From assembly GCF_988243305.1 (NCBI RefSeq), contig NZ_OZ547136.1: a stretch of DNA of 64,000 bases; one strand, given 5' to 3'. Positions 9,404 to 26,476 of this stretch are shown in pieces. Each line of letters opens with the position of its first letter. Within the stretch, counting starts at the first letter, position 1. The translations under genes were made by a program, and so were the position numbers. The notes below the pieces were generated by a model. The model had not been told where the DNA came from. It was given only the letters and a program-made list of their open reading frames with translations, and ran no database searches.

Positions 9404-10324
9404 ATGTTTCCAAAATGCAAATTTTCCCGCGAGTTTCTGCATCCTCGCTACTGGCTCACGTGGTTTGGGCTTGGTGTACTCTGGCTTTGGGTACAGCTTC
9501 CTTATCCTGTTCTCTGCTTTCTCGGCACGCGTATTGGCGCAATGGCGCGACCATTCCTGAAACGGCGTGAATCTATCGCCCGTAAAAACCTGGAACTTTG
9601 TTTCCCACAGCATTCTGCGGAAGAACGCGAGAAGATGATTGCCGAAAACTTTCGTTCACTCGGCATGGCGCTGGTAGAAACCGGCATGGCGTGGTTCTGG
9701 CCCGACAGTCGCGTACGTAAATGGTTTGATGTTGAAGGGTTGGATAACCTTAAACGCGCACAAATGCAAAATCGCGGCGTAATGGTTGTCGGCGTCCATT
9801 TTATGTCGCTGGAACTGGGCGGCCGCGTGATGGGACTGTGCCAACCAATGATGGCTACCTATCGTCCACATAATAATCAGCTGATGGAATGGGTGCAGAC
9901 CCGTGGGCGCATGCGCTCTAACAAAGCGATGATCGGCAGAAATAATCTGCGCGGCATTGTCGGTGCACTGAAGAAAGGTGAAGCGGTATGGTTTGCTCCC
10001 GATCAGGATTATGGTCGTAAAGGCAGCTCCTTCGCGCCGTTCTTTGCGGTGGAAAATGTTGCCACAACCAATGGTACGTATGTCCTTTCACGTCTCTCTG
10101 GCGCAGCCATGTTAACCGTAACGATGGTAAGAAAAGCGGATTACAGCGGATATCGTTTGTACATCACCCCAGAGATGGAAGGCTACCCGGCAGATGAAAA
10201 TCAAGCCGCTGCCTATATGAACAAGATTATCGAAAAAGAGATCATGCGCGCACCGGAGCAGTACCTCTGGATCCACCGTCGCTTTAAAACGCGCCCGGTG
10301 GGAGAATCGTCGCTATACATTTAA
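9404..10324 (+). CDS. lpxP: Lipid A biosynthesis palmitoleoyl acyltransferase (cold-induced)
   Basis: ORF 9338-10324; I prefer the ATG at 9404 (MFPKCKFSREF...), preceded by AAGGT. LpxL/LpxP-family acyltransferase, 306 aa. Confidence 0.85.
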   Translation: MFPKCKFSREFLHPRYWLTWFGLGVLWLWVQLPYPVLCFLGTRIGAMARPFLKRRESIARKNLELCFPQHSAEEREKMIAENFRSLGMALVETGMAWFWPDSRVRKWFDVEGLDNLKRAQMQNRGVMVVGVHFMSLELGGRVMGLCQPMMATYRPHNNQLMEWVQTRGRMRSNKAMIGRNNLRGIVGALKKGEAVWFAPDQDYGRKGSSFAPFFAVENVATTNGTYVLSRLSGAAMLTVTMVRKADYSGYRLYITPEMEGYPADENQAAAYMNKIIEKEIMRAPEQYLWIHRRFKTRPVGESSLYI

Positions 10325-10679
10325 CAAACTGCTCTTACTCTTTCCCTCCTCAAATCAGCCATAATAACCTCATGGTTTTTATGGCTTTTTTCTTAAGGTT
10401 TTTTCCTTCGCTGAATCTCTAATTATTACCGTCAGAAATTAAACTGTCGCCGATATGAGACACCTGTAAGTTACTAAAAGTAAATAAGAAAATGCCTCTT
10501 GTCTCGTTTTAGTTTTAGGCGTACATTAGCGCCGTCTGGAGCAGTTTAGCTCAGAATTCTGGGGTGATGCCCACGGTAAAATACAGGACTTTTAAGGTCG
10601 TTTTGCCCGGTGTCAACTCACTGTATCAGGTGTAATGAAGTCATTCAGGCGTAACAGTAATTACGCGGAGAGATGTAAA

Positions 10680-10751
10680 GTGAAATATTTCTTTATGGGC
10701 ATTTCTTTTATGGTCATCGTTTGGGCCGGTACTTTTGCCCTGATGATCTAA
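10680..10751 (+). CDS. ypdK: Small hydrophobic protein (23 aa) YpdK-like
   Basis: GTG-initiated ORF V/M-KYFFMGISFMVIVWAGTFALMI with GGAGAG 7-8 nt upstream. Below the ORF-track cutoff; found by reading the lpxP-alaC intergenic region. Confidence 0.5.
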   Translation: MKYFFMGISFMVIVWAGTFALMI

Positions 10752-10815
10752 AAGCAAACTGTGCAATGAAAAACAGGAGCCATCTGGCTCCTGTTTGCAT
10801 TTCTGGCGATGGTGT

Positions 10816-12054
10816 TTATTCCGCGTTTTCGTGAATATGTTTGCTGCTGGCGGGTAGTAAACCGTCGGCACGGAACATCGCTTTAATTCCACGAATCGCC
10901 TGACGAATACGGTCGCGGTTTTCAATCAGTGCAAAGCGAACATGCGTGTCGCCGTAGTCGCCAAAGCCAATCCCCGGAGAGACACAGACCTTCGCTTCGT
11001 TCAGCAGCTTCTTGGCAAATTCCAGCGAGCCCATGGCAGCATACGGTTCCGGGATTTTCGCCCAGACATACATCGAAGCCTTCGGCATTTCGACCATCCA
11101 GCCCGCTTCATGCAGCCCTTTAACCAGTACATCACGGCGGCGTTTGTACTGTTCGGCAATATCGCGCACGCACTGTTGATCGCCCTCCAGCGCCGCAATC
11201 GCTGCCACCTGCAACGGCGTAAAGGTGCCGTAATCGTGATAGCTTTTAATACGTGCCAGCGCGCTGACCAGCGTTTTGTTGCCAACCATAAAGCCGATAC
11301 GCCAGCCCGCCATGTTGTAGCTTTTCGACAGCGTAAAGAACTCGACCGCCACATCGCGTGCACCCGGCACCTGCATGATTGACGGCGCTTTCCAGCCATC
11401 GTAGACGATATCGGCATAGGCCAGGTCATGGACCACCAGCACATCGTAGCGTTTCGCCAGCGCCACAACCTTCTCAAAGAATTCCAGTTCCACGCATTGC
11501 GCGGTTGGGTTCGACGGGAAGCCGAGGATCATCATCTTCGGTTTCGGATAACTTTCGCGAATGGCGCGTTCCAGTTCGTTGAAGAAATCGACACCTTCCA
11601 CCAGCGGCACTGAGCGTACCTGCGCCCCGGCAATCACCGCGCCGTAAATATGAATCGGGTAGCTTGGATTAGGCACCAGTACAGTGTCACCATGATCCAG
11701 CGTCGCCAGCATCAGATGCGCCAGTCCCTCTTTCGAACCAATGGTGACGATAGCTTCTGATTCCGGGTCGATCTCGACGTCGTAGCGATCCTGATACCAG
11801 TGTGAAATGGCGCGACGTAGCCGCGGAATGCCGCGTGAAGTGGAGTAACCATGCGTGTCCGGGCGCTGGGCCACCGTACATAATTTTTCGACGATGTGCG
11901 GCGGAGTCGCACCGTCCGGGTTACCCATACTGAAATCGATAATATCTTCGCCGCGCCGACGCGCAGCCATTTTCAGTTCAGCGGTAATATTAAAAACGTA
12001 GGGCGGGAGACGATCAATGCGCGTAAAGCGACGTTCAGGGCGAGTGTCAGCCAT
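10816..12054 (-). CDS. alaC: Glutamate-pyruvate aminotransferase (PLP-dependent, class I/II)
   Basis: 412 aa ORF with aminotransferase fold motifs (...[12 protein letters not shown]...). Confidence 0.9.
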
Positions 12055-12430
12055 AATTTCCTCAGATTAACGTTAGCGCCCGGACCGTCCGAGCGACGCT
12101 GCCACGATGGTGGCTGTTTTGAAAATAGCCTGATTAATTTCTGTCTGTCCAGCGTTTTAGAACATTTTTATCAATGGCTTTAAATGAGGAACGCCACTTC
12201 AAAAACAGGAAATTTATCTGCGCTAACAAGAAAATTACCACTCATTTTATTAACATTATAATTTCAATAAATTTACCAAGCAGATGTGCATTATCAAGAG
12301 ATGCATTGCTAATACACCATTTATCTTTCAATCCCCTTTTAAAATTGTGGTTTTTCCTCAAAAACGGCCTGCTGGTCATCAGCCTTCAGGTTACCTATCA
12401 TAGAGGTTTAATCCTTATTCAGAGTCACCC

Positions 12431-14128
12431 GTGCACGAAATATTCAACATGCTGCTGGCGGTCTTCGATCGGGCAGCGTTAATGCTTATCTGCCTGTTCT
12501 TTCTCATCCGTATCCGCCTGTTTCGCGAACTGTTGCACAAGTCGGCGCACTCCCCAAAAGAGCTGCTCGCTGTTACCGCCATTTTCTCGCTGTTCGCCCT
12601 GTTCAGCACCTGGTCCGGCGTTCCCGTAGAAGGCTCGCTAGTGAACGTTCGTATTATCGCGGTGATGTCAGGCGGGATTCTGTTTGGCCCGTGGGTAGGC
12701 ATCATTACCGGCGTGATTGCGGGTATTCACCGGTATTTAATTGATATCGGCGGCGTGACGGCGATCCCCTGCTTTATCACCAGCATTCTGGCGGGTTGTA
12801 TATCGGGCTGGATCAACCTGAAAATCCCCAAAGCACAGCGCTGGCGCGTCGGTATTCTCGGCGGCATGTTATGTGAAACGTTGACCATGATTCTGGTGAT
12901 TGTCTGGGCACCAACTACCGCGTTGGGGATCGATATCGTCTCTAAAATCGGCATTCCGATGATCCTCGGTAGCGTCTGTATCGGCTTTATTGTGCTGCTG
13001 GTGCAAAGCGTTGAGGGCGAAAAAGAGGCCAGCGCCGCGCGGCAGGCCAAGCTGGCGCTGGATATCGCCAACAAAACGCTGCCGCTGTTTCGCCATGTCA
13101 ATAGCGAGTCATTACGCAAAGTTTGTGAAATTATCCGCGATGATATTCACGCCGATGCGGTGGCGATTACTAATACCGATCATGTGCTGGCCTATGTCGG
13201 CGTGGGCGAACACAACTATCAGAATGGCGATGACTTCATTAGCCCGACTACCCGACAGGCGATGAATTACGGAAAAATCATCATTAAAAACAATGATGAA
13301 GCCCACCGCACACCAGAGATTCATTCCATGCTGGTGATCCCATTGTGGGAGAAAGGCGTTGTGACCGGAACGCTGAAAATTTACTACTGCCACGCGCATC
13401 AGATCACTTCCTCATTACAGGAAATGGCGGTCGGTCTGTCGCAAATCATCTCCACGCAACTGGAGGTTTCACGCGCCGAGCAGCTACGTGAAATGGCAAA
13501 TAAGGCAGAGCTTCGCGCCCTGCAAAGCAAAATTAATCCCCATTTCCTGTTTAACGCTTTGAACGCTATTTCATCGTCAATCCGTCTGAATCCGGATACC
13601 GCTCGCCAGCTGATCTTTAATCTGTCGCGTTATCTGCGCTATAACATTGAATTAAAAGACGATGAGCAAATCGATATCAAAAAAGAGCTGTATCAAATTA
13701 AAGACTATATTGCCATTGAGCAGGCCCGCTTTGGCGACAAGCTGACGGTTATCTATGATATTGATGAAGAGGTGAATTGCTGCATTCCCAGCCTGCTGAT
13801 CCAGCCGTTGGTGGAAAACGCCATTGTCCACGGTATCCAGCCTTGCAAAGGTAAAGGCGTTGTCACCATCAGCGTTGCAGAGTGCGGTAATCGGGTACGT
13901 ATTGCGGTGCGAGATACCGGGCACGGCATCGATCCAAAGGTGATTGAGCGGGTCGAAGCGAACGAAATGCCGGGCAATAAAATTGGCCTGCTGAATGTCC
14001 ATCATCGCGTGAAGTTATTGTATGGCGAGGGGCTGCATATCCGCCGCCTGGAACCGGGGACGGAAATTGCGTTTTACATTCCTAACCAACGCACCCCAGT
14101 CGCCTCACAGGCTACGTTATTGCTTTGA
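12431..14128 (+). CDS. ypdA: LytS-type sensor histidine kinase (pyruvate-responsive YpdA)
   Basis: 565 aa, GTG start; N-terminal multi-TM 5TMR-LYT domain, GAF-like region, His-kinase core. Confidence 0.85.
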
Positions 14129-14142
14129 GCCGGAGTGATATT

Positions 14143-14877
14143 GTGAAAGTCATCATTGTTGAAGACGAATTCCTGGCACAACAGGAACTGAGCTGGCTAA
14201 TTAAAGAGCACAGCCAGATGGAGATTGTCGGCACCTTTGACGACGGTCTGGACGTGTTGAAGTTTTTGCAGCATAACCGCGTCGACGCCATTTTTCTGGA
14301 TATCAATATTCCGTCGCTGGATGGCGTGTTGCTGGCGCAAAACATCAGCCAGTTCGCCCATAAACCGTTTATTGTGTTCATCACCGCGTGGAAAGAACAT
14401 GCGGTAGAAGCATTTGAACTGGAAGCGTTTGACTACATTCTCAAACCGTATCAGGAGTCACGCATTACCGGGATGCTGCAAAAACTGGAAGCGGCCTGGC
14501 AACAACAGCAGACCAGCAGTACGCCTGCCACGACGGTAACGCGTGAGAATGACACCATTAATCTGGTGAAAGATGAGCGAATCATTGTCACGCCAATTAA
14601 CGATATCTATTACGCCGAAGCGCACGAGAAAATGACCTTTGTCTATACGCGGCGTGAATCCTACGTAATGCCGATGAACATTACCGAGTTTTGCAGCAAG
14701 CTGCCGCCGTCGCATTTTTTCCGCTGCCATCGCTCATTTTGTGTCAATCTGAACAAAATCCGCGAGATCGAACCGTGGTTTAATAACACCTATATTCTGC
14801 GGCTGAAAGATCTGGATTTTGAAGTGCCAGTCAGCCGCAGCAAAGTTAAAGAATTCCGCCAGTTAATGCATCTTTAA
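14143..14877 (+). CDS. ypdB: LytTR-family response regulator
   Basis: ORF 14125-14877; I prefer the GTG at 14143 (MKVIIVEDE...). Receiver domain plus C-terminal LytTR DNA-binding domain. Confidence 0.85.
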   Translation: MKVIIVEDEFLAQQELSWLIKEHSQMEIVGTFDDGLDVLKFLQHNRVDAIFLDINIPSLDGVLLAQNISQFAHKPFIVFITAWKEHAVEAFELEAFDYILKPYQESRITGMLQKLEAAWQQQQTSSTPATTVTRENDTINLVKDERIIVTPINDIYYAEAHEKMTFVYTRRESYVMPMNITEFCSKLPPSHFFRCHRSFCVNLNKIREIEPWFNNTYILRLKDLDFEVPVSRSKVKEFRQLMHL

Positions 14878-14889
14878 TCGGGAACTTTC

Positions 14890-15747
14890 ATGAAAGCACC
14901 AGGCTTGCCCGCCGATCAACAATTTTTCGCCGATCTGTTCAGCGGCCTGGTGCTTAACCCGCAACTACTGGGGCGCGTCTGGTTTGCCAGCCAGCCTGCC
15001 TCGTTACCGGTGGGCAGTTTATGTATTGATTTTCCCCGTCTGGATATCGTGCTGCGCGGCGAATACGGCAATCTGCTGGAAGCAAAGCAGCAACGTATGG
15101 TTGAAGGAGAAATGCTGTTTATTCCAGCGCGCGCGGCTAATTTACCGATCAACAACAAACCGGTGATGCTGTTAAGCCTGGTGTTCGCACCGACCTGGCT
15201 TGGGTTATCGTTTTACGATAGCCGTACCACGTCGTTGTTGCATCCTGCTCGCCAGATCCAGCTTCCCAGCCTGCAACGCGGCGAAGGTGAAGCAATGCTT
15301 ACTGCCCTCACCCATCTTAGCCGTTCGCCGCTGGAGCAGAATATCATTCAGCCGCTGGTGTTAAGTTTGCTGCATCTTTGCCGCAACGTGGTGAATATGC
15401 CGCCGGGTAATTCGCAGCCGCGCGGCGATTTTCTTTATCACAGCATTTGTAACTGGGTTCAGGATAATTATGCCCAGCCGCTCACCCGTGAGAGCGTGGC
15501 GCTGTTTTTTAATATCACGCCCAATCATCTGTCAAAACTGTTTGCGCAGCATGGAACAATGCGTTTTATCGAATATGTGCGTTGGGTGCGAATGGCGAAG
15601 GCGAGGATGATTTTGCAGAAATATCATCTGTCGATTCATGAAGTGGCGCAGCGTTGCGGCTTTCCGGACAGCGACTATTTTTGTCGCGTCTTCCGGCGTC
15701 AGTTTGGTCTGACGCCGGGAGAGTACAGCGCCCGCTTTCAGGGCTAA
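14890..15747 (+). CDS. ypdC: AraC-family transcriptional regulator
   Basis: 285 aa with a C-terminal AraC-type HTH. Confidence 0.8.
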   Translation: MKAPGLPADQQFFADLFSGLVLNPQLLGRVWFASQPASLPVGSLCIDFPRLDIVLRGEYGNLLEAKQQRMVEGEMLFIPARAANLPINNKPVMLLSLVFAPTWLGLSFYDSRTTSLLHPARQIQLPSLQRGEGEAMLTALTHLSRSPLEQNIIQPLVLSLLHLCRNVVNMPPGNSQPRGDFLYHSICNWVQDNYAQPLTRESVALFFNITPNHLSKLFAQHGTMRFIEYVRWVRMAKARMILQKYHLSIHEVAQRCGFPDSDYFCRVFRRQFGLTPGEYSARFQG

Positions 15748-15749
15748 CT

Positions 15750-18245
15750 TCAGAAGGTTAATTCCGTTTCCAGCAGCGTCAGGATGCTTTGCGCATCTTG
15801 CGCGGCGAACAGCGACTGGCGGAAGTTTTTATTCACCAGTTTACGCGCCAGCTGCGAGAAGACTTTCACATGATTCATCCCTTCGTTAGCGCCCAGTGTC
15901 AGCATGATCACCAGTTCGACTTCGCCCATTTCTGACTGCCAGTCAACCGGTTTCACTAGCCGGGCAATGCTGATACTGGAATGACGGATCCACTGAGATT
16001 TGGTGTGCGGGATCGCTACGCCAAAACCAACGCCTGTGGTAACAATCTCTTCCCGCTGCCAGACATCCTCTTCCAGCTCGAACGGATGTTCAGTGCGCCC
16101 GTTAACGCCGAGGTTACCGCACAGGAACTGGATCGCCTGCTCTTTATTGCTAAAGGACTGATCAACAAAGATATTCTCCAGCGCCAGCAGTGGGCGAACG
16201 TCTTCTTCCGGCGTAAAGGCGGTGAGTAACGCTTCAATTTCCTGCGCGCTGCGGCATTCACATGCCTGACGCGCCAGTTCCCGACACGCCTCGCTATCCA
16301 GTTGACGAAGCTGGCTTTTCACCGCCGGAATGCGCGGGCTACTCATACTTAACTCGTCCAGGCCCAGCCCAAGCAGTAGCGGCAGATAACGGCTTTCACC
16401 GCCCAGTTCACCGCAAATGCCTACCCATTTACCCCGCTGATGCGCAGTGGTAATAATCTGCTGCAACATGCGCAGGAACGATGGCGTAATCGGGTTATAC
16501 AGCGGCGATACGCGCGGGTTATTACGATCGACCGCATACAGATACTGGGTCATATCGTTAGAACCGATACTGAAGAAATCTACCTCATCGCAAAAGTGAT
16601 CGATGATGTAGCACACCGACGGCACTTCCACCATGATACCCAGCGTAATCGTCTCTGCATGACGCAGGCCATCGCGCTTAAGCTCAACGATCGCTTTTTG
16701 GATCTCGCCCTTCACCCATAAGATCTGATCGAGGCTGTGAACCATTGGGATCATCAACTGGGCGTTGCCGAAACTGGCGGCGCGCAAAATGGCCCGCAGT
16801 TGAGTGCGGAACAGGCCAGCAAATTCCGGGTAAATTCGTACCGCACGATAGCCGAGGAACGGGTTCTCTTCCTGGGGAATATTCAGATAAGGAATGCTTT
16901 TATCGCCGCCGATGTCCATTGTGCGGAAGATAATCGGCTTGTCGCCCGCTGCCAGTAGCACCTGCTGGTAGGCTTCAAATTGCTCCTGCTCGTCCGGCGC
17001 GCTGTCGCGATCCATATAGAGCATTTCAGTACGGAACAGCCCGACGCCTTCCGCGCCGTTGGCAAACGCGCCAGGCGCTTCCAGAGCGGTGCCAATATTC
17101 GCCGCGATATCAATACGCTTGTTATCACGGGAATAAGCCAGCTGCGCGGCAGCCTGCGCCTGCTGCTGCTGACGTTTATCTGCCAGCGTCTGCGCAACCT
17201 GATAATAACCGCTCACCGCGTCATCAGGATTAATCGCCAGCACGCCGCACTGGGCGTCAAGCACCGCCGGTTGCCCGGCATAACGCGCGATCGCATCCTG
17301 CGGCAAGCCACTCAGTACCGGGATCGCCGAGGCACGGGCCAGAATCAGGGTATGCGAGGTGCGCCCGGTTTTCTCCAGAATCATGCCCGCAAGATTTTTT
17401 AAATCGAGGCTCAAAAACTGGCTTGGGGTTAAATCCTCGGCCACCAGAATAGTCGGTTTTTCCAGCACCAGATTGTTGCGCGGCTTCAGTTCCGGCCAGG
17501 TGATATGCAGCAACTGTTCGCTGATATCGCGAATGTCGCTGACCCGCTCGCGCAGATAATCGCTGGCAGAAGCAGATAGTTTGGCGCAAACCTGCTCCAT
17601 ATTGCTGATGATCGCCGCCCCCAGTCCCTGATGCTGTTCTGCCATAAGGCGACGGATATTGCCTGCAAATTCATCATCCTGAATCAGCGACAAATGGGCG
17701 CTGAGGATAGTTTTGCTTTCGCCGTCACGCTCACGCAGCTGCTGGTTCAGTTGCTCGGCAAGCGTTGCCAGGCTGTGCTCCAGCCGGGTGGAGTCTTGCG
17801 CACTGGCAGGGATTACCCGATAACTATCGAGGCTGTCGCTCTGTAACAGGGTCAGCGTACCCACGCCGACGCCGCTTGCCAGCACATTGCCGTACAGTAA
17901 ATCAGGATTCAGACGGCTTAATGAACGCGGCAGCGGATGCGCCGTCAGTTCTGCCTGTGTTGGCTGGATGCTGTCGCTGTCGATAAAGCGCACCTGGATG
18001 TACTCTTCCAGCACGCGCCGCGCCTGCTCTTCATCGCTGCCGCTAATGTTCAGGCTGCAACTGTCATTAAATAAAGTGCCGGTGCCAATCAGCGCCAGCG
18101 AACTTTTCGCATCGGCCTTTGCGTTCTGGCGATGGTTGATGAAGGTGATTTCGCTTTGCCACTGGCTGCACTGTTCTTTAAGTTCCCACGCCGGACGAGC
18201 ATGCAGACCGTTTGGCAAAGGACAGAGAAATTGAATCGTTAACAT
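15750..18245 (-). CDS. fryA: PTS multiphosphoryl transfer protein (fused HPr-like, Enzyme I-like and EIIA-Fru-like domains)
   Basis: 831 aa ORF; the central region is Enzyme I-like (PEP-utilising enzyme) with HPr-like and EIIA-like modules. Confidence 0.9.
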   Translation of the reverse strand: MLTIQFLCPLPNGLHARPAWELKEQCSQWQSEITFINHRQNAKADAKSSLALIGTGTLFNDSCSLNISGSDEEQARRVLEEYIQVRFIDSDSIQPTQAELTAHPLPRSLSRLNPDLLYGNVLASGVGVGTLTLLQSDSLDSYRVIPASAQDSTRLEHSLATLAEQLNQQLRERDGESKTILSAHLSLIQDDEFAGNIRRLMAEQHQGLGAAIISNMEQVCAKLSASASDYLRERVSDIRDISEQLLHITWPELKPRNNLVLEKPTILVAEDLTPSQFLSLDLKNLAGMILEKTGRTSHTLILARASAIPVLSGLPQDAIARYAGQPAVLDAQCGVLAINPDDAVSGYYQVAQTLADKRQQQQAQAAAQLAYSRDNKRIDIAANIGTALEAPGAFANGAEGVGLFRTEMLYMDRDSAPDEQEQFEAYQQVLLAAGDKPIIFRTMDIGGDKSIPYLNIPQEENPFLGYRAVRIYPEFAGLFRTQLRAILRAASFGNAQLMIPMVHSLDQILWVKGEIQKAIVELKRDGLRHAETITLGIMVEVPSVCYIIDHFCDEVDFFSIGSNDMTQYLYAVDRNNPRVSPLYNPITPSFLRMLQQIITTAHQRGKWVGICGELGGESRYLPLLLGLGLDELSMSSPRIPAVKSQLRQLDSEACRELARQACECRSAQEIEALLTAFTPEEDVRPLLALENIFVDQSFSNKEQAIQFLCGNLGVNGRTEHPFELEEDVWQREEIVTTGVGFGVAIPHTKSQWIRHSSISIARLVKPVDWQSEMGEVELVIMLTLGANEGMNHVKVFSQLARKLVNKNFRQSLFAAQDAQSILTLLETELTF

Positions 18246-18269
18246 AACCGCTCCGGGTTAATCAGGAGA

Positions 18270-19307
18270 TCATCTGAAATCCGTCAGTTGAACAACCGTC
18301 TCACGGGTAAGACGTTGAATAAGGGCAGATAAAAGTTGCTGCATCTGCAAAATGTCGCGGCAATCGGCAATCGATGCCGCACAATGTCCGTGGCGCGTCG
18401 CTGGCCCCATCACCACCGTGGGTACGCCGGTGTCAGTTAAATGCACCGCTCCACCGTCCGTGCCGCCGTTGCTGAACATATCTGCCTGTAACGGCACGCC
18501 AATTTCTGCCGCCACGGTTTCAATCCACGCGGTAAGTTTTGGCGGCGCAATCAGCGACTTGTCGCTTAATACCAGCATCGGGCCGTTACCAATCTGGCGA
18601 TGGTTAGCCGCGCCATAATCAAAGTTTTTCGCCCAGCAGGCGGTATCCAGCACAATCGCAACGTCCGGTGAAACCGCACGGGTAGCGGTTTGCCCGCCGC
18701 GTAATCCCACCTCTTCGCTGGAGCTGGCCACCAGCCACACCTCCGCAGGCAGTTCGGCGTCGTGCAGCTCACGTAGTAACGTCACCAGCAGATAGCAACC
18801 GAGGCGATCATCAAAGGCTTTCCCCATCACCCGCTGGTGAGGGAGAACCTGAAAAGTTGTATCAAAGGTGACGCGATCGCCTGGACGAATTCCCGCCTGC
18901 ATCACTTCGTCATACGAGCGCGCACCAATGTCCACGCGCATGGCGCTGACGTCATTCCCCTGCCGGTCGCCGTCAAGCAGGCCTGGAATTTTGCACTCTT
19001 CACGGGTAGTGATACGCACCGACTGAAGCTGGCGGGCAGCCATGCGTACATTGCCAACCGGCAACACATCGATCGCCCCTTCGCGGGAGATGCTGCGCAC
19101 CATAAATCCCACTTCATCCATATGCGCACAGATCATCACCTTCGGACCTGTCGATTCATTGAGGCGGATCAGCACCGATCCCAGGCCATCAAATCGCACT
19201 TCTTTTTGCAGGCGATCCGCTTCTTCCAGCAGGATCTGCCGTACTTCCTGTTCCGAGGAGGCGATCGCATCTGCCTCGCTCAACGCTTTTAATAGCGATA
19301 AATCCAT
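18270..19307 (-). CDS. ypdE: M42-family aminopeptidase
   Basis: 345 aa ORF of the FrvX/YpdE metallo-aminopeptidase family; its start overlaps the ypdF stop by 1 nt. Confidence 0.85.
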
Positions 19308-20392
19308 TATGCCTCTCCCGTGAGCAACACTGTTTTCGGCATGGCGTAGAGCACTTCTGCGCCTTGCGGGGTAACCAGCACAACATCTTCGATGCGCACG
19401 CCCCCTTGCCCTGGCAAATAAATCCCCGGCTCCACGGTCAGCAACATGCCTGGCTGTAGCGTCGTGGTGTCCCGCGGTGAAAAACGCGGATCTTCATGGA
19501 CTTCAATACCGATGGCATGACCGGTGTTATGACCGAAATAGTCGCCAAATCCAGCCTCGGTAATCACCCGGCGCGCGGCGTCGTCAACCTGCTGGCAGCG
19601 CACGCCGGGGCGAATCGAGGAGATTGCTGCGAGCTGTGCCTGCAAAACAATCTGATAGACGTCAAACAGCGGGTGAAATTCGGCGCTCACCCCTTCGCCA
19701 TTCACAAGCAAGGTACGCGTCATATCAGAGCAGTACCCCTGATACAGCGCACCGAAATCGAGAGTGACAAACTCGCCCGCTGCAACAATCTTGTCGCTGG
19801 CTTTGCCGTGCGGCAGCGCCCCACGCCAGCCGCTGGCGACAATGGTATCGAAAGAGGCTTTTTCTGCGCCCTGCTGGCGCATAAACCACTCCAGTTCAGC
19901 GGCTATCTCGCGCTCGCTCATCCCCGCCTGAATAAAGCGGCGAATATGCTCAGCACCGCGATCGGCAATCCCACAGGCGAGGCGGATTTTCTCCACCTCC
20001 TCTGGCGTTTTGATTTGCCGCAGCACATCCGGCGTGGCGCTAACCAGTTTCGCATTGAGTTCAGACTGCCAGCGGTGCGCGGTTTCCCAACATACCTGCT
20101 GGCCTTCAAAACCGAGCGTTTGCAACTGCTCATCGGCAATGATTTGATTGACGATAGTGGTAAGCGTGTTCGTCGCGTCAAGCAAATGCAGCTGGTAGCC
20201 TTGCGTGCGGGCTTCTACATCCGCGTAATAGCGCGAGTCCACCAGAATGTGCGCACTTTCACGGCTAATCAGCACATAGCCTGATCCGGTGGAGATCCCC
20301 AGATGCGGCTGTTTGTTCTGCCGTGAGGAGAGAAGCACCGCATCCAGTTGTTGCGCCTTAAGCCAGTCACGCAGCGAAGCGAGTAATGTCAT
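19307..20392 (-). CDS. ypdF: M24-family Xaa-Pro aminopeptidase
   Basis: 361 aa ORF with creatinase/prolidase fold motifs. Confidence 0.85.
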
Positions 20393-20406
20393 CTGGATTT
20401 TCCTTC

Positions 20407-21654
20407 TTACAGGCTATCGATTAACAATTTGCCTTTACGGAACATCATCAGACGCAGGAACACCACCATCAGCGCAGTTATGACTGCCCCCAGCGCGATC
20501 CCCGCCATGTAGACGCCGAGGTTAGTGACCAGCGGCCATGCCCAGATAGCGGACTCCGGGAACCATTGCACTGCGCCCAGCCAGACTGCAGCGGTTGAGC
20601 CGACAATCGCGCCGACCATATAGGACGGAATGGCGGTGATGGGGCTTTCCAGTGCAAACGGAATCGCACCTTCACTGATCCCCATAAAGGCCAGGAACAT
20701 GGCGGTTTTACCCTGCGGATAAAGCTGAGCGTTGAACAGGCGTTTGCCGGTTAAACGGCGGTCGATAATGGTCGCCAGACCCAGACCAATCGGCGGAATA
20801 ACGATAGCGATAGAACGTGCGGTGACCGGTAATACGTGGTCCGTGGTAAAGCTGAAGGCAACGAAACCAGCTGCTTTGTTGATCGGGCCACCAAGGTCGA
20901 TTGCTGTCGCCGCGGCGATCCCCATCGCGTACATCAGCGCGCCCTTCTCACCTGCGGCAGTCAGCACGGTACGGATACCGCCGTTGATCCAGCCGCCAAA
21001 GGGGGTGATGACGTAGTACATCGCCAGCATGACAAAAATGGCGGAAAGAATCGGTAGCAAAAAAGTGGTTTTGAACGCTAACAGGAAATCCGGTAACTGG
21101 ATTTTCTGGTTCATCCATTTCACAAGGTAACCAGCAACGATAGAAATAATCAGGGCACCAATGAAGGTGGACGGCACCGGCGAAGAGGTCGCCCATTGCA
21201 TAGTGCTGGGATCGAAGTTCAGCAGTTGCGTCGGCTGGGTAGACATCAAGCCGCCGATAAAACCAGCCGGGAACGCCAGTTTGCCACCGATAGAGTTCGC
21301 CACAAATGCAGCAAACATCGGAATGGCGAAACCAAACAACACGCCGCCGAAGGATTGCGACAGCCAGGCAAATTTCAGTAAGGAAAGGTCGAAACCGGAG
21401 AATTTCCCGCTATTAAGAGCATCCATGATGCCGATATCAGCAGGAATTTTAAGCCAGCTATAAGCAATCAGCTGGCTGAAAGCGAGGATCACACCGCCCA
21501 TAATTAAGGTCGGCACCATGCGTGAAATCCCTGACATCACATGCTGCGGGAGTTCACCCCAGAAGCTGCTTTTAGAGGCCTGCGGATTCTTAACTGCCGC
21601 TGCCGCACCGGATGCGCCAGGCACAACGGTTGCACTGCGTTTTTTAATGGCCAT
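20407..21654 (-). CDS. fryC: PTS fructose-like EIIC component
   Basis: 415 aa polytopic membrane ORF of the EIIC-Fru family. Confidence 0.85.
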
Positions 21655-21675
21655 AACAATTATCCCTGTCGAATA

Positions 21676-22002
21676 TTACTGTTGTTCAGAGGCAATCATC
21701 TCTTCGATTTCTTTGATGATGCCCGCAGCGTTTTTAATTGCGTCCTGCAAAGTGATTTCATAAACGTCGCGTGATTCGAAACGTTCGTTATCTTCCGGGG
21801 TAACCGCCACGGAGTGGATGATGATGGTCGCTTCGGCGATATCCTGCGCGGTCAGACGATTCTGGATACCGTCCGCACCCTGGGTTTCAATTTTCACTTC
21901 ATAACCGGCTTCTACCGCCGCTTCTTCCAGCGCCTGAGCGGCCATAAAGGTGTGAGCCAGGCCCATTGGGCAGGCACATAAGGCAATCAGTTTCTTACTC
22001 AT
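21676..22002 (-). CDS. fryB: PTS fructose-like EIIB component
   Basis: ORF 21676-22053; I prefer the ATG at 22002 (MSKKLIALCACPMGLAHT...), which carries the EIIB active-site Cys motif. Confidence 0.8.
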   Translation of the reverse strand: MSKKLIALCACPMGLAHTFMAAQALEEAAVEAGYEVKIETQGADGIQNRLTAQDIAEATIIIHSVAVTPEDNERFESRDVYEITLQDAIKNAAGIIKEIEEMIASEQQ

Positions 22003-22221
22003 CGTTAATTCCTCGTTCAGTGATAGTTGACGAGTGAAATTATGAACGTGCAAAACAAATCGCCGTTACCAGACAAATAATGCATTTACTGGAGAATTAA
22101 TCCCGCTGTACGGAAGTGTGACGCAGGTCGGCCTTGTGAGGAGGACGCAAAGAAAAATTGAATTAACTGTATGATTTAAAAGATTATCGGGAGAGTTACC
22201 TCCCGATATAACAGGAAGGAT

Positions 22222-23187
22222 TTACAGAATGTGACCTAAGGTCTGGCGTAAATGTGCACCGGAACCGAGAAGACCCGGATTGTCATGGACGATGAGATAC
22301 ACCGGAATATCATGGACATATTCTTTAAAGCGCCCTTTATCTTCAAATGCGGCACGGAAACCGGAGGCTTTGAAGAACTCAAGGAAGCGCGGCACGATAC
22401 CGCCCGCAATAAACACGCCGCCAAATGTCCCGAGATTGAGCGCCAGATTGCCGCCAAAACGGCCCATAATGACGCAAAACAGCGACAATGCGCGGCGGCA
22501 ATCGGTGCAGCTGTCAGCCAGCGCGCGTTCGGTAATATCTTTTGGCTTGAGATTTTCTGGCAGGCGGTTGTCGGCTTTCACAATTGCGCGATACAAATTC
22601 ACCAGCCCAGGGCCAGAAAGCACACGTTCCGCCGAAACATGACCAATTTCCGCACGCAATATTTCGAGGATAATGGCCTCTTCTTCACTGTTCGGCGCAA
22701 AATCAACGTGACCGCCTTCGCCTGGCAAGCTTACCCAACGCTTATCTACATGGACCAGATGCGCAACCCCAAGCCCCGTTCCGGCACCGTAAACCGCAAT
22801 AGGCTTACCTTCGACCGGTTCTGCGCCACCAAACTGAATCAGATGCTCTTTTTTCAGCATCGGGATCGCCATCGATACAGCGGTAAAATCGTTAATAATT
22901 TCCAGATGGCTAAAACCGAGATTCTTTTTCATTTCGGCAATTGAGAACGCCCAGGTATGGTTGGTCATTGCCACCCAGTCACCGGTAATTGGGCAAGCGA
23001 TGGCAATACAGCCGTCTTTCACCTCGACCTTATGTTCTTCAAGATAAACGCGAATGACCGCTTCGAGGCTGGGGTAATCAAGCCCTGAATAGGTCTTAGC
23101 CTGCGAGATTTCACCACTGGCAATATCACACAGAGCAAGACGTGCGTTGGTGCCGCCCACATCACCGACTAATGCATACTTTGTCAT
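22222..23187 (-). CDS. glk: Glucokinase
   Basis: 321 aa ORF with the ROK-like/glucokinase N-terminal ATP motif ([14 protein letters not shown]). Confidence 0.95.
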
Positions 23188-23390
23188 TCTTCAACTGCTC
23201 CGCTAAAGTCAAAATAATTCTTTCTCACACTGTAAATACCTGGGGGCATAACAACAACGCCGGAAAGGCAGGCTCCCTGTAAATATCGATCTGGGTCACA
23301 CAATTACTTTATCGTTTCAGCACCAATTGCAGCGATGCCTTTTTGCAAGCTGGGCAAACTAAGTATCTGACCCCGCATAAGGAATAGAAT

Positions 23391-24647
23391 ATGCTCCATC
23401 CGCGAGCCAGAACCATGTTGTTATTATCGCTCCCCGCCGTGGCAATTGGGATTGCGTCCAGTCTTATTCTGATTGTGGTGATGAAAATCGCCTCGGCATT
23501 ACAGAATTTGCTCTGGCAACGACTGCCGGGAACTTTGGGGATAGCCCAGGATTCACCTTTCTGGATCATCGCCATATTAACGCTAACAGGTATTGCGGTG
23601 GGGTTGGTTATCCGTTTCAGCCAGGGGCATGCCGGACCAGACCCCGCCTGTGAACCGCTGATCGGCGCACCGGTTCCGCCCTCTGCGCTACCAGGGCTTA
23701 TCGTAGCATTAATTCTTGGTCTTGCTGGTGGCGTCAGCCTGGGGCCAGAACATCCGATCATGACCGTCAATATCGCCCTTGCGGTTGCCATTGGCGCTCG
23801 TCTGTTACCGCGCGTCAACCGAATGGAGTGGACTATTTTAGCCTCTGCCGGAACCATCGGCGCGCTGTTTGGCACACCTGTTGCGGCGGCGTTGATATTT
23901 TCGCAAACCTTAAATGGCAGTAGTGAAGTTCCGCTATGGGATCGTCTTTTTGCGCCGTTAATGGCGGCAGCAGCTGGTGCACTTACTACCGGATTATTTT
24001 TCCATCCCCATTTTTCACTGCCCATTGCGCATTACGGACAAATGGAAATGACCGATATTCTCAGCGGTGCAATTGTCGCGGCGATTGCCATCGCAGCAGG
24101 GATGGTCGCCGTATGGTGCTTACCACGGTTGCACGCGATGATGCATCAAATGAAAAATCCGGTGCTCGTGCTGGGTATTGGCGGATTTATTCTCGGTATT
24201 CTGGGGGTTATTGGTGGACCAGTTTCGCTGTTTAAAGGGCTGGATGAGATGCAGCAGATGGTGGCAAATCAGGCTTTCAGCACCAGCGATTACTTTTTGC
24301 TGGCGGTGATTAAACTTGCCGCCCTGGTCGTTGCTGCCGCCAGTGGCTTTCGCGGTGGGCGAATCTTCCCGGCAGTGTTTGTCGGGGTGGCATTAGGGTT
24401 GATGCTGCATGAGCACGTTCCCGCCGTTCCAGCGGCAATAACCGTTTCCTGCGCTATTCTCGGCATCGTGCTGGTGGTAACACGCGATGGCTGGTTAAGT
24501 CTTTTTATGGCGGCAGTCGTTGTACCCAATACCACATTGCTACCGCTGCTCTGTATCGTCATGCTTCCGGCATGGCTGTTATTAGCAGGTAAGCCGATGA
24601 TGATGGTCAATCGTCCGAAGCAACAGCCACCCCACGATAACGTTTAG
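23391..24647 (+). CDS. yfeO: Putative ion channel / ClC-like membrane protein YfeO
   Basis: 418 aa polytopic membrane ORF. Confidence 0.8.
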
Positions 24648-24761
24648 CAAAAAATGCTCTCCTTTATGATTTAAGAGTTATGGCGATGATACGGGGCTTT
24701 ACCTCCCCGTAATATTGCGTTAACAGGCCGCTGACGGCTTCGATCGTGAAGGAGAATAACA

Positions 24762-25088
24762 ATGTTCAGGTCACTGTTTCTGGCGGCCGCCCTGATGGCA
24801 TTTACCCCGCTTGCGGCAAACGCAGGTGAAATCACCCTACTGCCATCAATCAAATTACAAATTGGCGATCGCGATCATTACGGCAATTACTGGGACGGTG
24901 GTCACTGGCGCGACCGTGACTACTGGCATCGCAATTATGAATGGCGTAAGAACCGCTGGTGGCGTCATGATAATGGCTACCACCGTGGCTGGGATAAGCG
25001 TAAAGCGTATGAGCGTGGCTATCGTGAAGGCTGGCGCGATCGTGACGATCATCGCGGAAAAGGCCGCGGACATGGACACCGCCATTAA
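24762..25088 (+). CDS. ypeC: Secreted low-complexity protein YpeC (Arg/Asp/Trp/His-rich)
   Basis: 108 aa ORF with a signal peptide, then repeated RDxxW/HR motifs and a C-terminal GHGHRH. Confidence 0.7.
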
Positions 25089-25112
25089 ACACATTCGCCA
25101 ATGGAGCACAAT

Positions 25113-25225
<113 letters not shown>

Positions 25226-25228
25226 CAA

Positions 25229-26476
<1,248 letters not shown>

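Follow-up and report, generated by a model that had tools for sequence, protein, structure and literature searches.

Why are genes for two aminopeptidases enclosed within an operon for a sugar permease, what does this permease carry, and what switches the operon on? We addressed these questions for the cluster fryB-fryC-ypdF-ypdE-fryA, found in a stretch of 64,000 nucleotides (hereafter, the window) of contig NZ_OZ547136.1 (RefSeq assembly GCF_988243305.1), where one M24 and one M42 peptidase gene lie between genes of a phosphotransferase system (PTS). The locus is the annotated fry operon of Escherichia coli K-12 (b2383-b2387), whose composition has long been visible, so that the finding as such is already known. 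Its substrate was stated as unknown in a 2017 paper, a 2023 review calls FryABC only 'fructose-like', and the current K-12 annotation of the fry genes is still 'putative', all of which agrees with a preliminary description of this DNA, made from the sequence alone, according to which no substrate was established. In the literature that we searched, we found no Fry substrate, no YpdC target, and no report of a module combining a PTS, M24 and M42 peptidases, and a lyase. To the known operon we add three elements absent from that literature: the probable assignment of its control to the neighboring gene ypdC rather than to ypdAB, a promoter resembling that of araBAD, and an orthologous Firmicutes module with a MalY-like lyase.

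The five genes are encoded on the minus strand (Table 1) with spacers of 21 nt (fryB-fryC), 14 nt (fryC-ypdF), and 24 nt (ypdE-fryA), and with a 1-nt overlap between ypdF and ypdE. The table of open reading frames (ORFs), the junction sequences, which we read directly, and Pfam searches on the proteins bore out both the position of the M24 and M42 genes between PTS genes and the tight packing claimed in the preliminary description. The single-nucleotide overlap that it noted is also real, but its ATGA-type label is not, as the junction reads gcaTAATGgat, i.e., TAATG, in which the ypdF stop and the ypdE start share one base. A Shine-Dalgarno-like GGA or GAGG precedes every start codon in the unit. 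This gene layout does not appear to be due to chance, as the same spacings are kept in 22 other Enterobacterales loci; the ypdF/ypdE overlap has the form T[AG]ATG in 17 of these 22 and measures 10-11 nt in the other five. M24 and M42 domains occur together in some 464-495-aa proteins of E. coli in the databases (P0003, P0008, P0012), which may correspond to frameshift read-through at the TAATG junction or to gene-calling artefacts. A consensus promoter scan detected no minus-strand promoter-like site in the intergenic gaps of the unit, with matches overall at chance level (13 observed for 10.2 expected). The sole minus-strand match inside the operon (TGAACA-18-GATAAT, window positions 21659-21688, 9 of 12 positions matching) stops 4 nt short of the fryC ATG and would thus yield a near-leaderless transcript; such matches are at chance level. 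Rfam identified no RNA family across positions 10000-26000 of the window.

YpdE and YpdF have reportedly been characterized as aminopeptidases that hydrolyze ordinary peptides in vitro. Both possess the domains and residues of their families, the M42 TET-type aminopeptidases and the M24B Xaa-Pro aminopeptidases/prolidases, respectively. YpdE matches PF05343 (Peptidase_M42, 2.8e-85), and its metal-binding and catalytic residues H62, D166, E198, E199, D221, and H308 do not vary across 11 enterobacterial and Firmicutes sequences, including those of FrvX and SgcX. YpdF contains PF01321 (Creatinase_N) and PF00557 (Peptidase_M24), with metal ligands (D212, D223, H292, E321, and E335) that are invariant in the enterobacterial and Firmicutes proteins. 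Structures exist for a YpdE orthologue (PDB 1YLO) and for YpdF (PDB 5CNX). On the PTS side, FryC (PF02378, PTS_EIIC), FryB (PF02302, PTS_IIB), and the EIIA domain of FryA (PF00359) all scored above the gathering score; the NCBIfam model TIGR01427 gave FryC a score of 157.5, just under its cut-off of 157.55. Their domains identify FryB, FryC, and the FryA EIIA domain as a likely fructose-family PTS enzyme II, with putative phosphoenolpyruvate (PEP)-dependent sugar phosphorylation. FryA itself carries five Pfam domains in order along its 831 aa (PTS-HPr, PEP-utilisers_N, mobile, and C, and EIIA_2), namely HPr, three enzyme I (EI) domains, and EIIA on one chain, as in multiphosphoryl transfer proteins.

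The association of PTS and peptidase genes is not limited to fry. Each of the three E. coli M42 paralogues belongs to a PTS operon, namely fry for ypdE, frvABXR for frvX, and sgcXBCQAER for sgcX. They are mutually 29-34% identical, and SgcC has no detectable similarity to FryC; therefore, a single operon duplication cannot explain the pattern. As in fry, the M42 gene of the frv and sgc operons lies amid PTS genes and its product conserves the M42 metal ligands but, unlike fry, these operons contain neither an M24 gene nor an HPr-EI-EIIA fusion. The K-12 FrvR protein (locus L002, 3108-4856) combines HTH_11 and EIIA_2 domains like the PRD/Mga-type regulators of the Firmicutes modules described below, with no detectable PRD domain, and frv may represent a reduced form related to these modules.

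A much closer counterpart of fry exists in the Firmicutes. An exhaustive HMMER search retrieved the nearest non-enterobacterial relatives of YpdE at 42-45% identity and, in every informative genomic context of these relatives and of FryC-like EIICs, we found PTS genes, an M24 gene as immediate neighbor, or the two together. From a FryC-like EIIC and three organism look-ups, we identified a seven-gene operon encoding a PRD/Mga-type regulator, EIIA, EIIB, EIIC, M24 and M42 peptidases, and a pyridoxal phosphate (PLP) enzyme in Tetragenococcus halophilus, Enterocloster, Lacrimispora celerecrescens, and a Solobacterium metagenome-assembled genome. This module has the same EIIB-EIIC-M24-M42 order as fry, and its proteins are 67-74% (EIIB/FryB), 58-62% (EIIC/FryC), 40-44% (M24/YpdF), and 41-42% (M42/YpdE) identical to those of the window. 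The two versions differ in their control and phosphoryl transfer, with a PRD-type regulator, a separate small EIIA, and no private EI or HPr in the Firmicutes, whereas fry has an AraC-type regulator and the HPr-EI-EIIA fusion. They also differ in that the Firmicutes module has an additional C-S lyase gene, whereas in the enterobacterial loci fryA comes straight after ypdE and there is no lyase. In the five fry-type Firmicutes loci, the M42 and lyase genes share 11-53 nt.

The PLP enzyme of the module matches the PatB C-S lyase family (cut-off of 340 bits) with 344 bits in the Tetragenococcus operon and 360 bits in a variant locus (L089), where an M42-M24-lyase trio, with a lyase 29% identical to MalY, accompanies a lactose/cellobiose-type PTS and an alanine dehydrogenase. 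The lyases of the fry-type modules are 38-42% identical to E. coli MalY, the best value among the E. coli proteins compared. We rejected AlaC as a possible remnant of this enzyme, given its identity of no more than 19-27%. In the four complete fry-type Firmicutes operons, the stretch from the regulator to the lyase has no gene for a glycosidase, kinase, isomerase, or deglycase, and the sole enzymes are the M24 and M42 peptidases and the PatB/MalY-family lyase. A PTS paired with a lyase of this family also occurs in the K-12 malX-malY operon (L097, 3356-6130), although without peptidases and with an EIIBC protein, MalX, lacking detectable similarity to the EIICs of the module. This is a second unexplained PTS-lyase pairing, the malX-malY PTS having no established physiological substrate. 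In the Solobacterium module, an ISL3-family transposase gene lies between the EIIB and EIIC genes (L096, 7467-8951). Beside two Firmicutes modules (L094, 1-5247; L089, 1-5862) we observed genes for SIS-domain proteins, PfkB kinases, and ATP-binding cassette (ABC) or PTS transporters, a mix typical of the utilization of Amadori compounds or amino sugars that may be coincidental here.

Not all M24 proteins share this context. In a scan derived from YpdF, 55 Firmicutes M24 homologues (38-45% identical to YpdF) were stand-alone, with no PTS or M42 gene within 10 kb; therefore, the link follows the FryC/YpdE lineage and not M24 proteins generally. The YpdF-seeded scan had pointed to an M24-PTS link restricted to enterobacteria, which was overturned by the searches from YpdE and FryC-like EIICs. 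Recent transfer of the fry genes from low-GC Firmicutes is unsupported, with a fry GC content of 51-57%. The orthologous operon across phyla and the conservation of the cassette thus indicate that the PTS-peptidase link has been selected and is conserved from Firmicutes to enterobacteria. This comparison of genomic contexts, together with the PTS location of the three E. coli M42 genes, upholds the view of the preliminary description that the pairing is meaningful.

A selected link does not by itself specify what is shared. The fry genes might form a starvation or scavenging unit in which an orphan fructose-like permease is merely co-expressed with two general cytoplasmic aminopeptidases that degrade ordinary peptides, whether imported or endogenous, without any common substrate. 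The reported cleavage of unmodified peptides by YpdE and YpdF in vitro would fit this explanation, as would a promoter with a CRP-type site (see below), typical of carbon-limitation genes, and the observation of the fryA deletion phenotype (see below) in peptide-rich LB. Nevertheless, the EIIC-M24-M42 adjacency has been kept across phyla despite a changed regulator and a changed phosphoryl-transfer arrangement, M42 genes have been recruited to the PTS operons of two unrelated EIIC families, and the 55 stand-alone M24 loci show that the link is specific rather than generic. We consequently regard simple co-expression as unlikely, though deserving attention. It could also be imagined that FryA, FryB, and FryC do not import a nutrient but act as a phosphorelay sensor, comparable to PTS-Ntr, that tunes peptide catabolism. 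FryA indeed forms an HPr-EI-EIIA chain that is complete in itself and set apart from the general PTS, and in Escherichia the operon adjoins the pyruvate-sensing ypdAB and alaC. However, this neighborhood is not conserved, the Firmicutes versions have a separate small EIIA and no private EI or HPr, and the permease FryC is better conserved between the phyla than every other component but FryB, so that a purely regulatory role seems very unlikely.

The operon is also maintained in E. coli. Gene order, gene lengths, and junctions are identical in K-12 (b2382-b2388) and in the window, without any structural difference, and the five fry genes and ypdC share 95-98% nucleotide and 97-100% amino-acid identity. 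By megablast, the 8-kb stretch is present in 5,424 of 5,426 complete E. coli genomes, whose annotations list ypdC, fryA (sometimes as 'ptsP'), ypdE, ypdF, fryC, fryB, and glk. The ratio of nonsynonymous to synonymous differences (pN/pS) relative to K-12 is 0.00-0.10 for the five fry genes (0.04 for fryA), all of which are under strong purifying selection. In the uropathogenic E. coli (UPEC) strain UTI89, a ypdE deletion mutant was out-competed in the mouse bladder (competitive index of 0.30), a colonization defect suggesting that the substrate is host-derived, and the 2017 paper describes better survival of an in-frame fryA deletion mutant in prolonged LB culture. A cryptic or decaying operon without current function in E. 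coli might be suspected from the lack of a known laboratory phenotype or inducer and from occasional damaged copies, such as a split ypdE in Escherichia sp. MOD1-EC7003 (L007, 11086-12038) and a split fryA in Citrobacter amalonaticus (L018, 12146-14628). The strong selection on the five genes, their near-universal presence, the fitness effect of the ypdE deletion in vivo, and a conserved promoter footprint (see below) all contradict this idea, which we consider extremely improbable.

Within the cassette, ypdF evolves fastest relative to K-12 (97.2% amino-acid identity, pN/pS of 0.10, with 0.00-0.06 for its neighbors), and it is 94-97% identical among Escherichia species, where the flanking genes are mostly 98-100% identical. 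For positions 15000-23000 of the window, the best match among complete RefSeq E. coli genomes did not exceed 98.3% identity (95-99% per gene for K-12); therefore, the window derives from a divergent lineage of Escherichia/Shigella type.

The preliminary description proposed that the adjacent sensor and regulator genes ypdA, ypdB, and ypdC may control the operon. We compared 28 Enterobacterales loci, obtained from a one-genome-per-species YpdF scan and three earlier look-ups and covering genera that include Escherichia, Citrobacter, Salmonella (S. arizonae/diarizonae), Klebsiella (K. oxytoca), Kluyvera, Buttiauxella, Superficieibacter, Enterobacter, Pluralibacter, and Serratia. The order fryB-fryC-ypdF-ypdE-fryA occurs in every one of them as far as the contig reaches (tblastn map). 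Among the 26 loci whose contig runs past fryA, a convergent ypdC lies directly past fryA in 23, and ypdAB is present in only eight (Escherichia and the C. freundii complex) and missing from the other 18. The cassette occupies at least four chromosomal contexts: in some genera it adjoins glk, in K. oxytoca it is flanked by asnS and a porin gene, and in Buttiauxella it lies beside citrate-lyase genes. These counts and the variety of sites therefore make ypdC a part of the cassette and exclude ypdAB from it. In an AlphaFold model of YpdC (AF2, mean confidence score pLDDT of 86), a cupin-like beta domain at the N terminus is combined with a DNA-binding domain of the AraC type; a Foldseek search with this model retrieved Rns, CsvR, and ToxT in full length and, more weakly, the regulatory domain of RhaR.

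A promoter suited to such a regulator precedes fryB. In an alignment of the 260 nt upstream of this gene from 27 loci (26 distinct sequences), we observed a footprint conserved irrespective of the chromosomal site: nCCGACnnnCGTCACAnTTC - N9 - GnATTAnTTnTCCAGTAAA - n - GCATnATTTnTCTGGTAAC - N20 - CATAAT. The last hexamer, a predicted -10 element, is present in 25 of the 27 aligned regions, and differs by one base in the two exceptions; it would place the transcription start near position 22032, with the fryB ATG at 22002. There is no match to a -35 hexamer at this promoter, because of which the consensus promoter scan missed it. Upstream of the -10 element lie two half-sites in direct repeat with a 20-bp period (Table 1). 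A position weight matrix (PWM) built from both found only these two strong sites in the 64-kb window, with scores of 29.6 and 24.5 and a next-best score of 14.6. In a non-circular version of this test, a PWM from half-site 1 alone ranked half-site 2 first among the other window positions and, conversely, one from half-site 2 alone ranked half-site 1 second. Farther upstream there is a CRP-like site with a perfect right half, which is conserved together with the GA of the left one (nnnGA-N6-TCACA), and the Serratia version reads TGTGA-N6-TCGCA. Matches to the CRP consensus are uninformative alone (186 observed for 220 expected), and genomic SELEX lists fryB among new CRP targets (PMC3105977).

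The arrangement of two direct-repeat half-sites by the -35 position, no -35 hexamer, and a -10 element corresponds to the class II layout of promoters activated by AraC/XylS-family proteins. At araBAD, AraC occupies I1-I2 and CRP is centered at -93.5; at rhaBAD, the activator is RhaS and CRP is centered at -92.5. The fryB promoter resembles both in its half-sites reaching -35, its missing -35 hexamer, and its CRP-like site at a similar distance, but its half-site period is 20 bp instead of the 21 bp of AraC, and the gene of its predicted regulator faces the 3' end of the operon convergently, whereas those of araBAD and rhaBAD are divergent at the promoter. From the match between this footprint and the regulator that travels with the cassette, we infer that YpdC binds the fryB half-sites. 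Thus, of the regulator set initially proposed, the ypdC part stands as a prediction, supported by its co-inheritance and by a footprint that suits an AraC-family activator, whereas the ypdAB part does not.

For the latter, it may be argued that ypdC starts about 12-18 bp after ypdB in Escherichia and the C. freundii complex, where ypdA, ypdB, and ypdC are recorded as a single transcription unit, and that pyruvate could thus modulate the dosage of ypdC, although in these taxa only. In this way, or else directly, YpdA/YpdB might control fry, in the former case through expression of ypdC from a ypdABC transcript. However, ypdAB is missing from 15 loci in which both ypdC and the conserved promoter are found, and the direct form of the hypothesis, with fry as a member of the YpdA/YpdB (PyrSR) regulon, which we examined and rejected, is contradicted by the absence of any match with up to 2 mismatches to the YpdB direct-repeat motif GGCATTTCAT in the 219-nt glk-fryB spacer (22003-22221). 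Across the whole window, GGCATTTCAT-like matches are below chance, and published work reports yhjX as the only direct YpdB target. Control by YpdAB in either form is therefore highly improbable, and the fry operon is probably switched on by YpdC and CRP, not by the pyruvate sensor YpdAB.

Taking these elements together, the reading that we favor, to which we give roughly an even chance as a whole, is that fryB-fryC-ypdF-ypdE-fryA form one operon, the transcription of which depends on an activator and on a single promoter ahead of fryB, with peptidases acting on the imported cargo. YpdC would be the likely ligand-sensing activator and cAMP-CRP the likely co-activator. FryA would provide a private phosphoryl chain from PEP to HPr to EIIA, feeding FryB and FryC, which would import and phosphorylate a fructose-family compound. 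YpdF and YpdE, produced in coupled amounts through the TAATG overlap, would jointly strip the peptide part of this cargo, YpdF, specific for Xaa-Pro, cutting residues ahead of proline, and YpdE having a broad specificity blocked by proline. In the Firmicutes, the MalY-like beta C-S lyase might then take off the last residue by beta-elimination; this task could fall to MalY or MetC in E. coli, unless the step differs there.

A cargo consisting of a sugar joined to an amino acid or a short peptide is the simplest reading, because the only enzymes of the Firmicutes operon are two aminopeptidases and a beta C-S lyase; we hold it to be possible, its chances lying between doubtful and even. The preliminary description had already suggested a glycosylated or peptide-linked substrate, a suggestion that the Firmicutes operon strengthens without taking it beyond inference. 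More tentatively still, and with some doubt, fry might be the enterobacterial form of a cross-phylum module for sugar-amino-acid or sugar-peptide PTS substrates, such as O- or S-glycosyl Ser/Cys peptides, in which beta-elimination by the lyase replaces a glycosidase and YpdC acts as the sensor.

Several observations weigh against this favored scheme. The hydrolysis of ordinary peptides by YpdE and YpdF reported in vitro can be explained without a glyco-conjugate. The enterobacterial cassette has no lyase, and neither version has a glycosidase or a deglycase. At the promoter, the direct repeat is weak in any single sequence and was missed by a repeat search of the intergenic region, being clear only from the multi-species consensus and the cross-PWM scans, and the CRP-like site, with three mismatches, is alone not above chance. 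Three loci hold the promoter footprint without an adjacent ypdC. Finally, published ChIP-exo (chromatin immunoprecipitation with exonuclease digestion) data contain no YpdC sites under the conditions tested.

Table 1 Features of the fry region, with positions in the 64,000-nt window.
Feature	Position	Strand	Description
ypdA	12431-14128	+	sensor kinase
ypdB	14143-14877	+	LytTR-type response regulator
ypdC	14890-15747	+	AraC-family regulator, predicted to be a dedicated fry activator; Pfam HTH_18/HTH_AraC; stop TAA 15745-15747
Inverted repeat	15693-15718		perfect 10-bp inverted repeat CCGGCGTCAG-N6-CTGACGCCGG, inside ypdC 3' end, 31 nt beyond fryA stop
Convergent gap	15748-15749		2 bp between ypdC and fryA stop codons, read from the sequence
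fryA	15750-18245	-	multiphosphoryl transfer protein HPr-EI-EIIA (Fru type), 831 aa; stop TGA 15752-15750
ypdE	18270-19307	-	M42 aminopeptidase, 345 aa
ypdF	19307-20392	-	M24B Xaa-Pro-type aminopeptidase (Creatinase_N + M24), 361 aa
fryC	20407-21654	-	fructose-family PTS EIIC, 415 aa
fryB	21676-22002	-	PTS EIIB, 108 aa
-10 hexamer	22039-22044	-	predicted, CATAAT
Promoter-proximal half-site	22065-22083	-	GCATTATTTGTCTGGTAAC; half-site 2; about -51 to -33; predicted YpdC site; conserved block
Distal half-site	22085-22103	-	GGATTAATTCTCCAGTAAA; half-site 1; about -71 to -53; direct repeat of the proximal half-site
CRP-like site	22117-22132	-	GCCGA-N6-TCACA; center near -92.5
glk terminator	22185-22208	-	intrinsic; 10-bp stem then T run; only convincing terminator of the region
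glk	22222-23187	-	glucokinase

At its other end, the operon meets ypdC almost stop to stop. The preliminary description placed the fryA stop 2 bp from that of ypdC with no terminator between them, and both statements were confirmed, by the sequence and by a terminator scan with folding, respectively, which detected no intrinsic terminator near position 15750 on either strand. Among the 23 loci carrying ypdC, 14 have the two stops within -4 to +4 bp of each other; with such a near-zero convergent gap, the fry and ypdC transcripts must therefore overlap at their 3' ends. Wider gaps hold insertions, namely REP-like (repetitive extragenic palindromic) palindromes in Salmonella arizonae/diarizonae (101-107 bp; L005, L014, and L015, 14640-14750) a 365-368-bp insert in the C. 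freundii complex (L013, L016, and L025, about 13590-15010), and 200 bp in Serratia (L031, 6751-6952). The inverted repeat within the 3' end of ypdC folds into a hairpin with z = -4.0 (minus-strand fold) but, because a U tract follows it on neither strand, it is not a canonical terminator. About 15 of 21 orthologues preserve its arms exactly, with a wobble base that varies in the loop, and the arms correspond to RRQ and LTP codons, which are mutual reverse complements. This repeat may serve to set the 3' end or the stability of a transcript, or may simply follow from the protein motif and codon bias. On the upstream side, the glk terminator is predicted to shield the fry promoter from glk read-through.

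Fry is among the last PTS systems of E. coli K-12 without a substrate, and all three M42 peptidase genes of this species sit unexplained in PTS operons. The permease-peptidase link conserved from Lachnospiraceae and Enterococcaceae to Enterobacteriaceae, the lyase chemistry, the araBAD-like promoter, and the co-inherited AraC-type regulator offer handles toward the inducer and the substrate, turning an old orphan operon into a testable problem. If the more tentative reading of fry as part of a cross-phylum module is true, it would serve a previously undescribed class of PTS substrates, in which a sugar is bound covalently to an amino acid or a short peptide.

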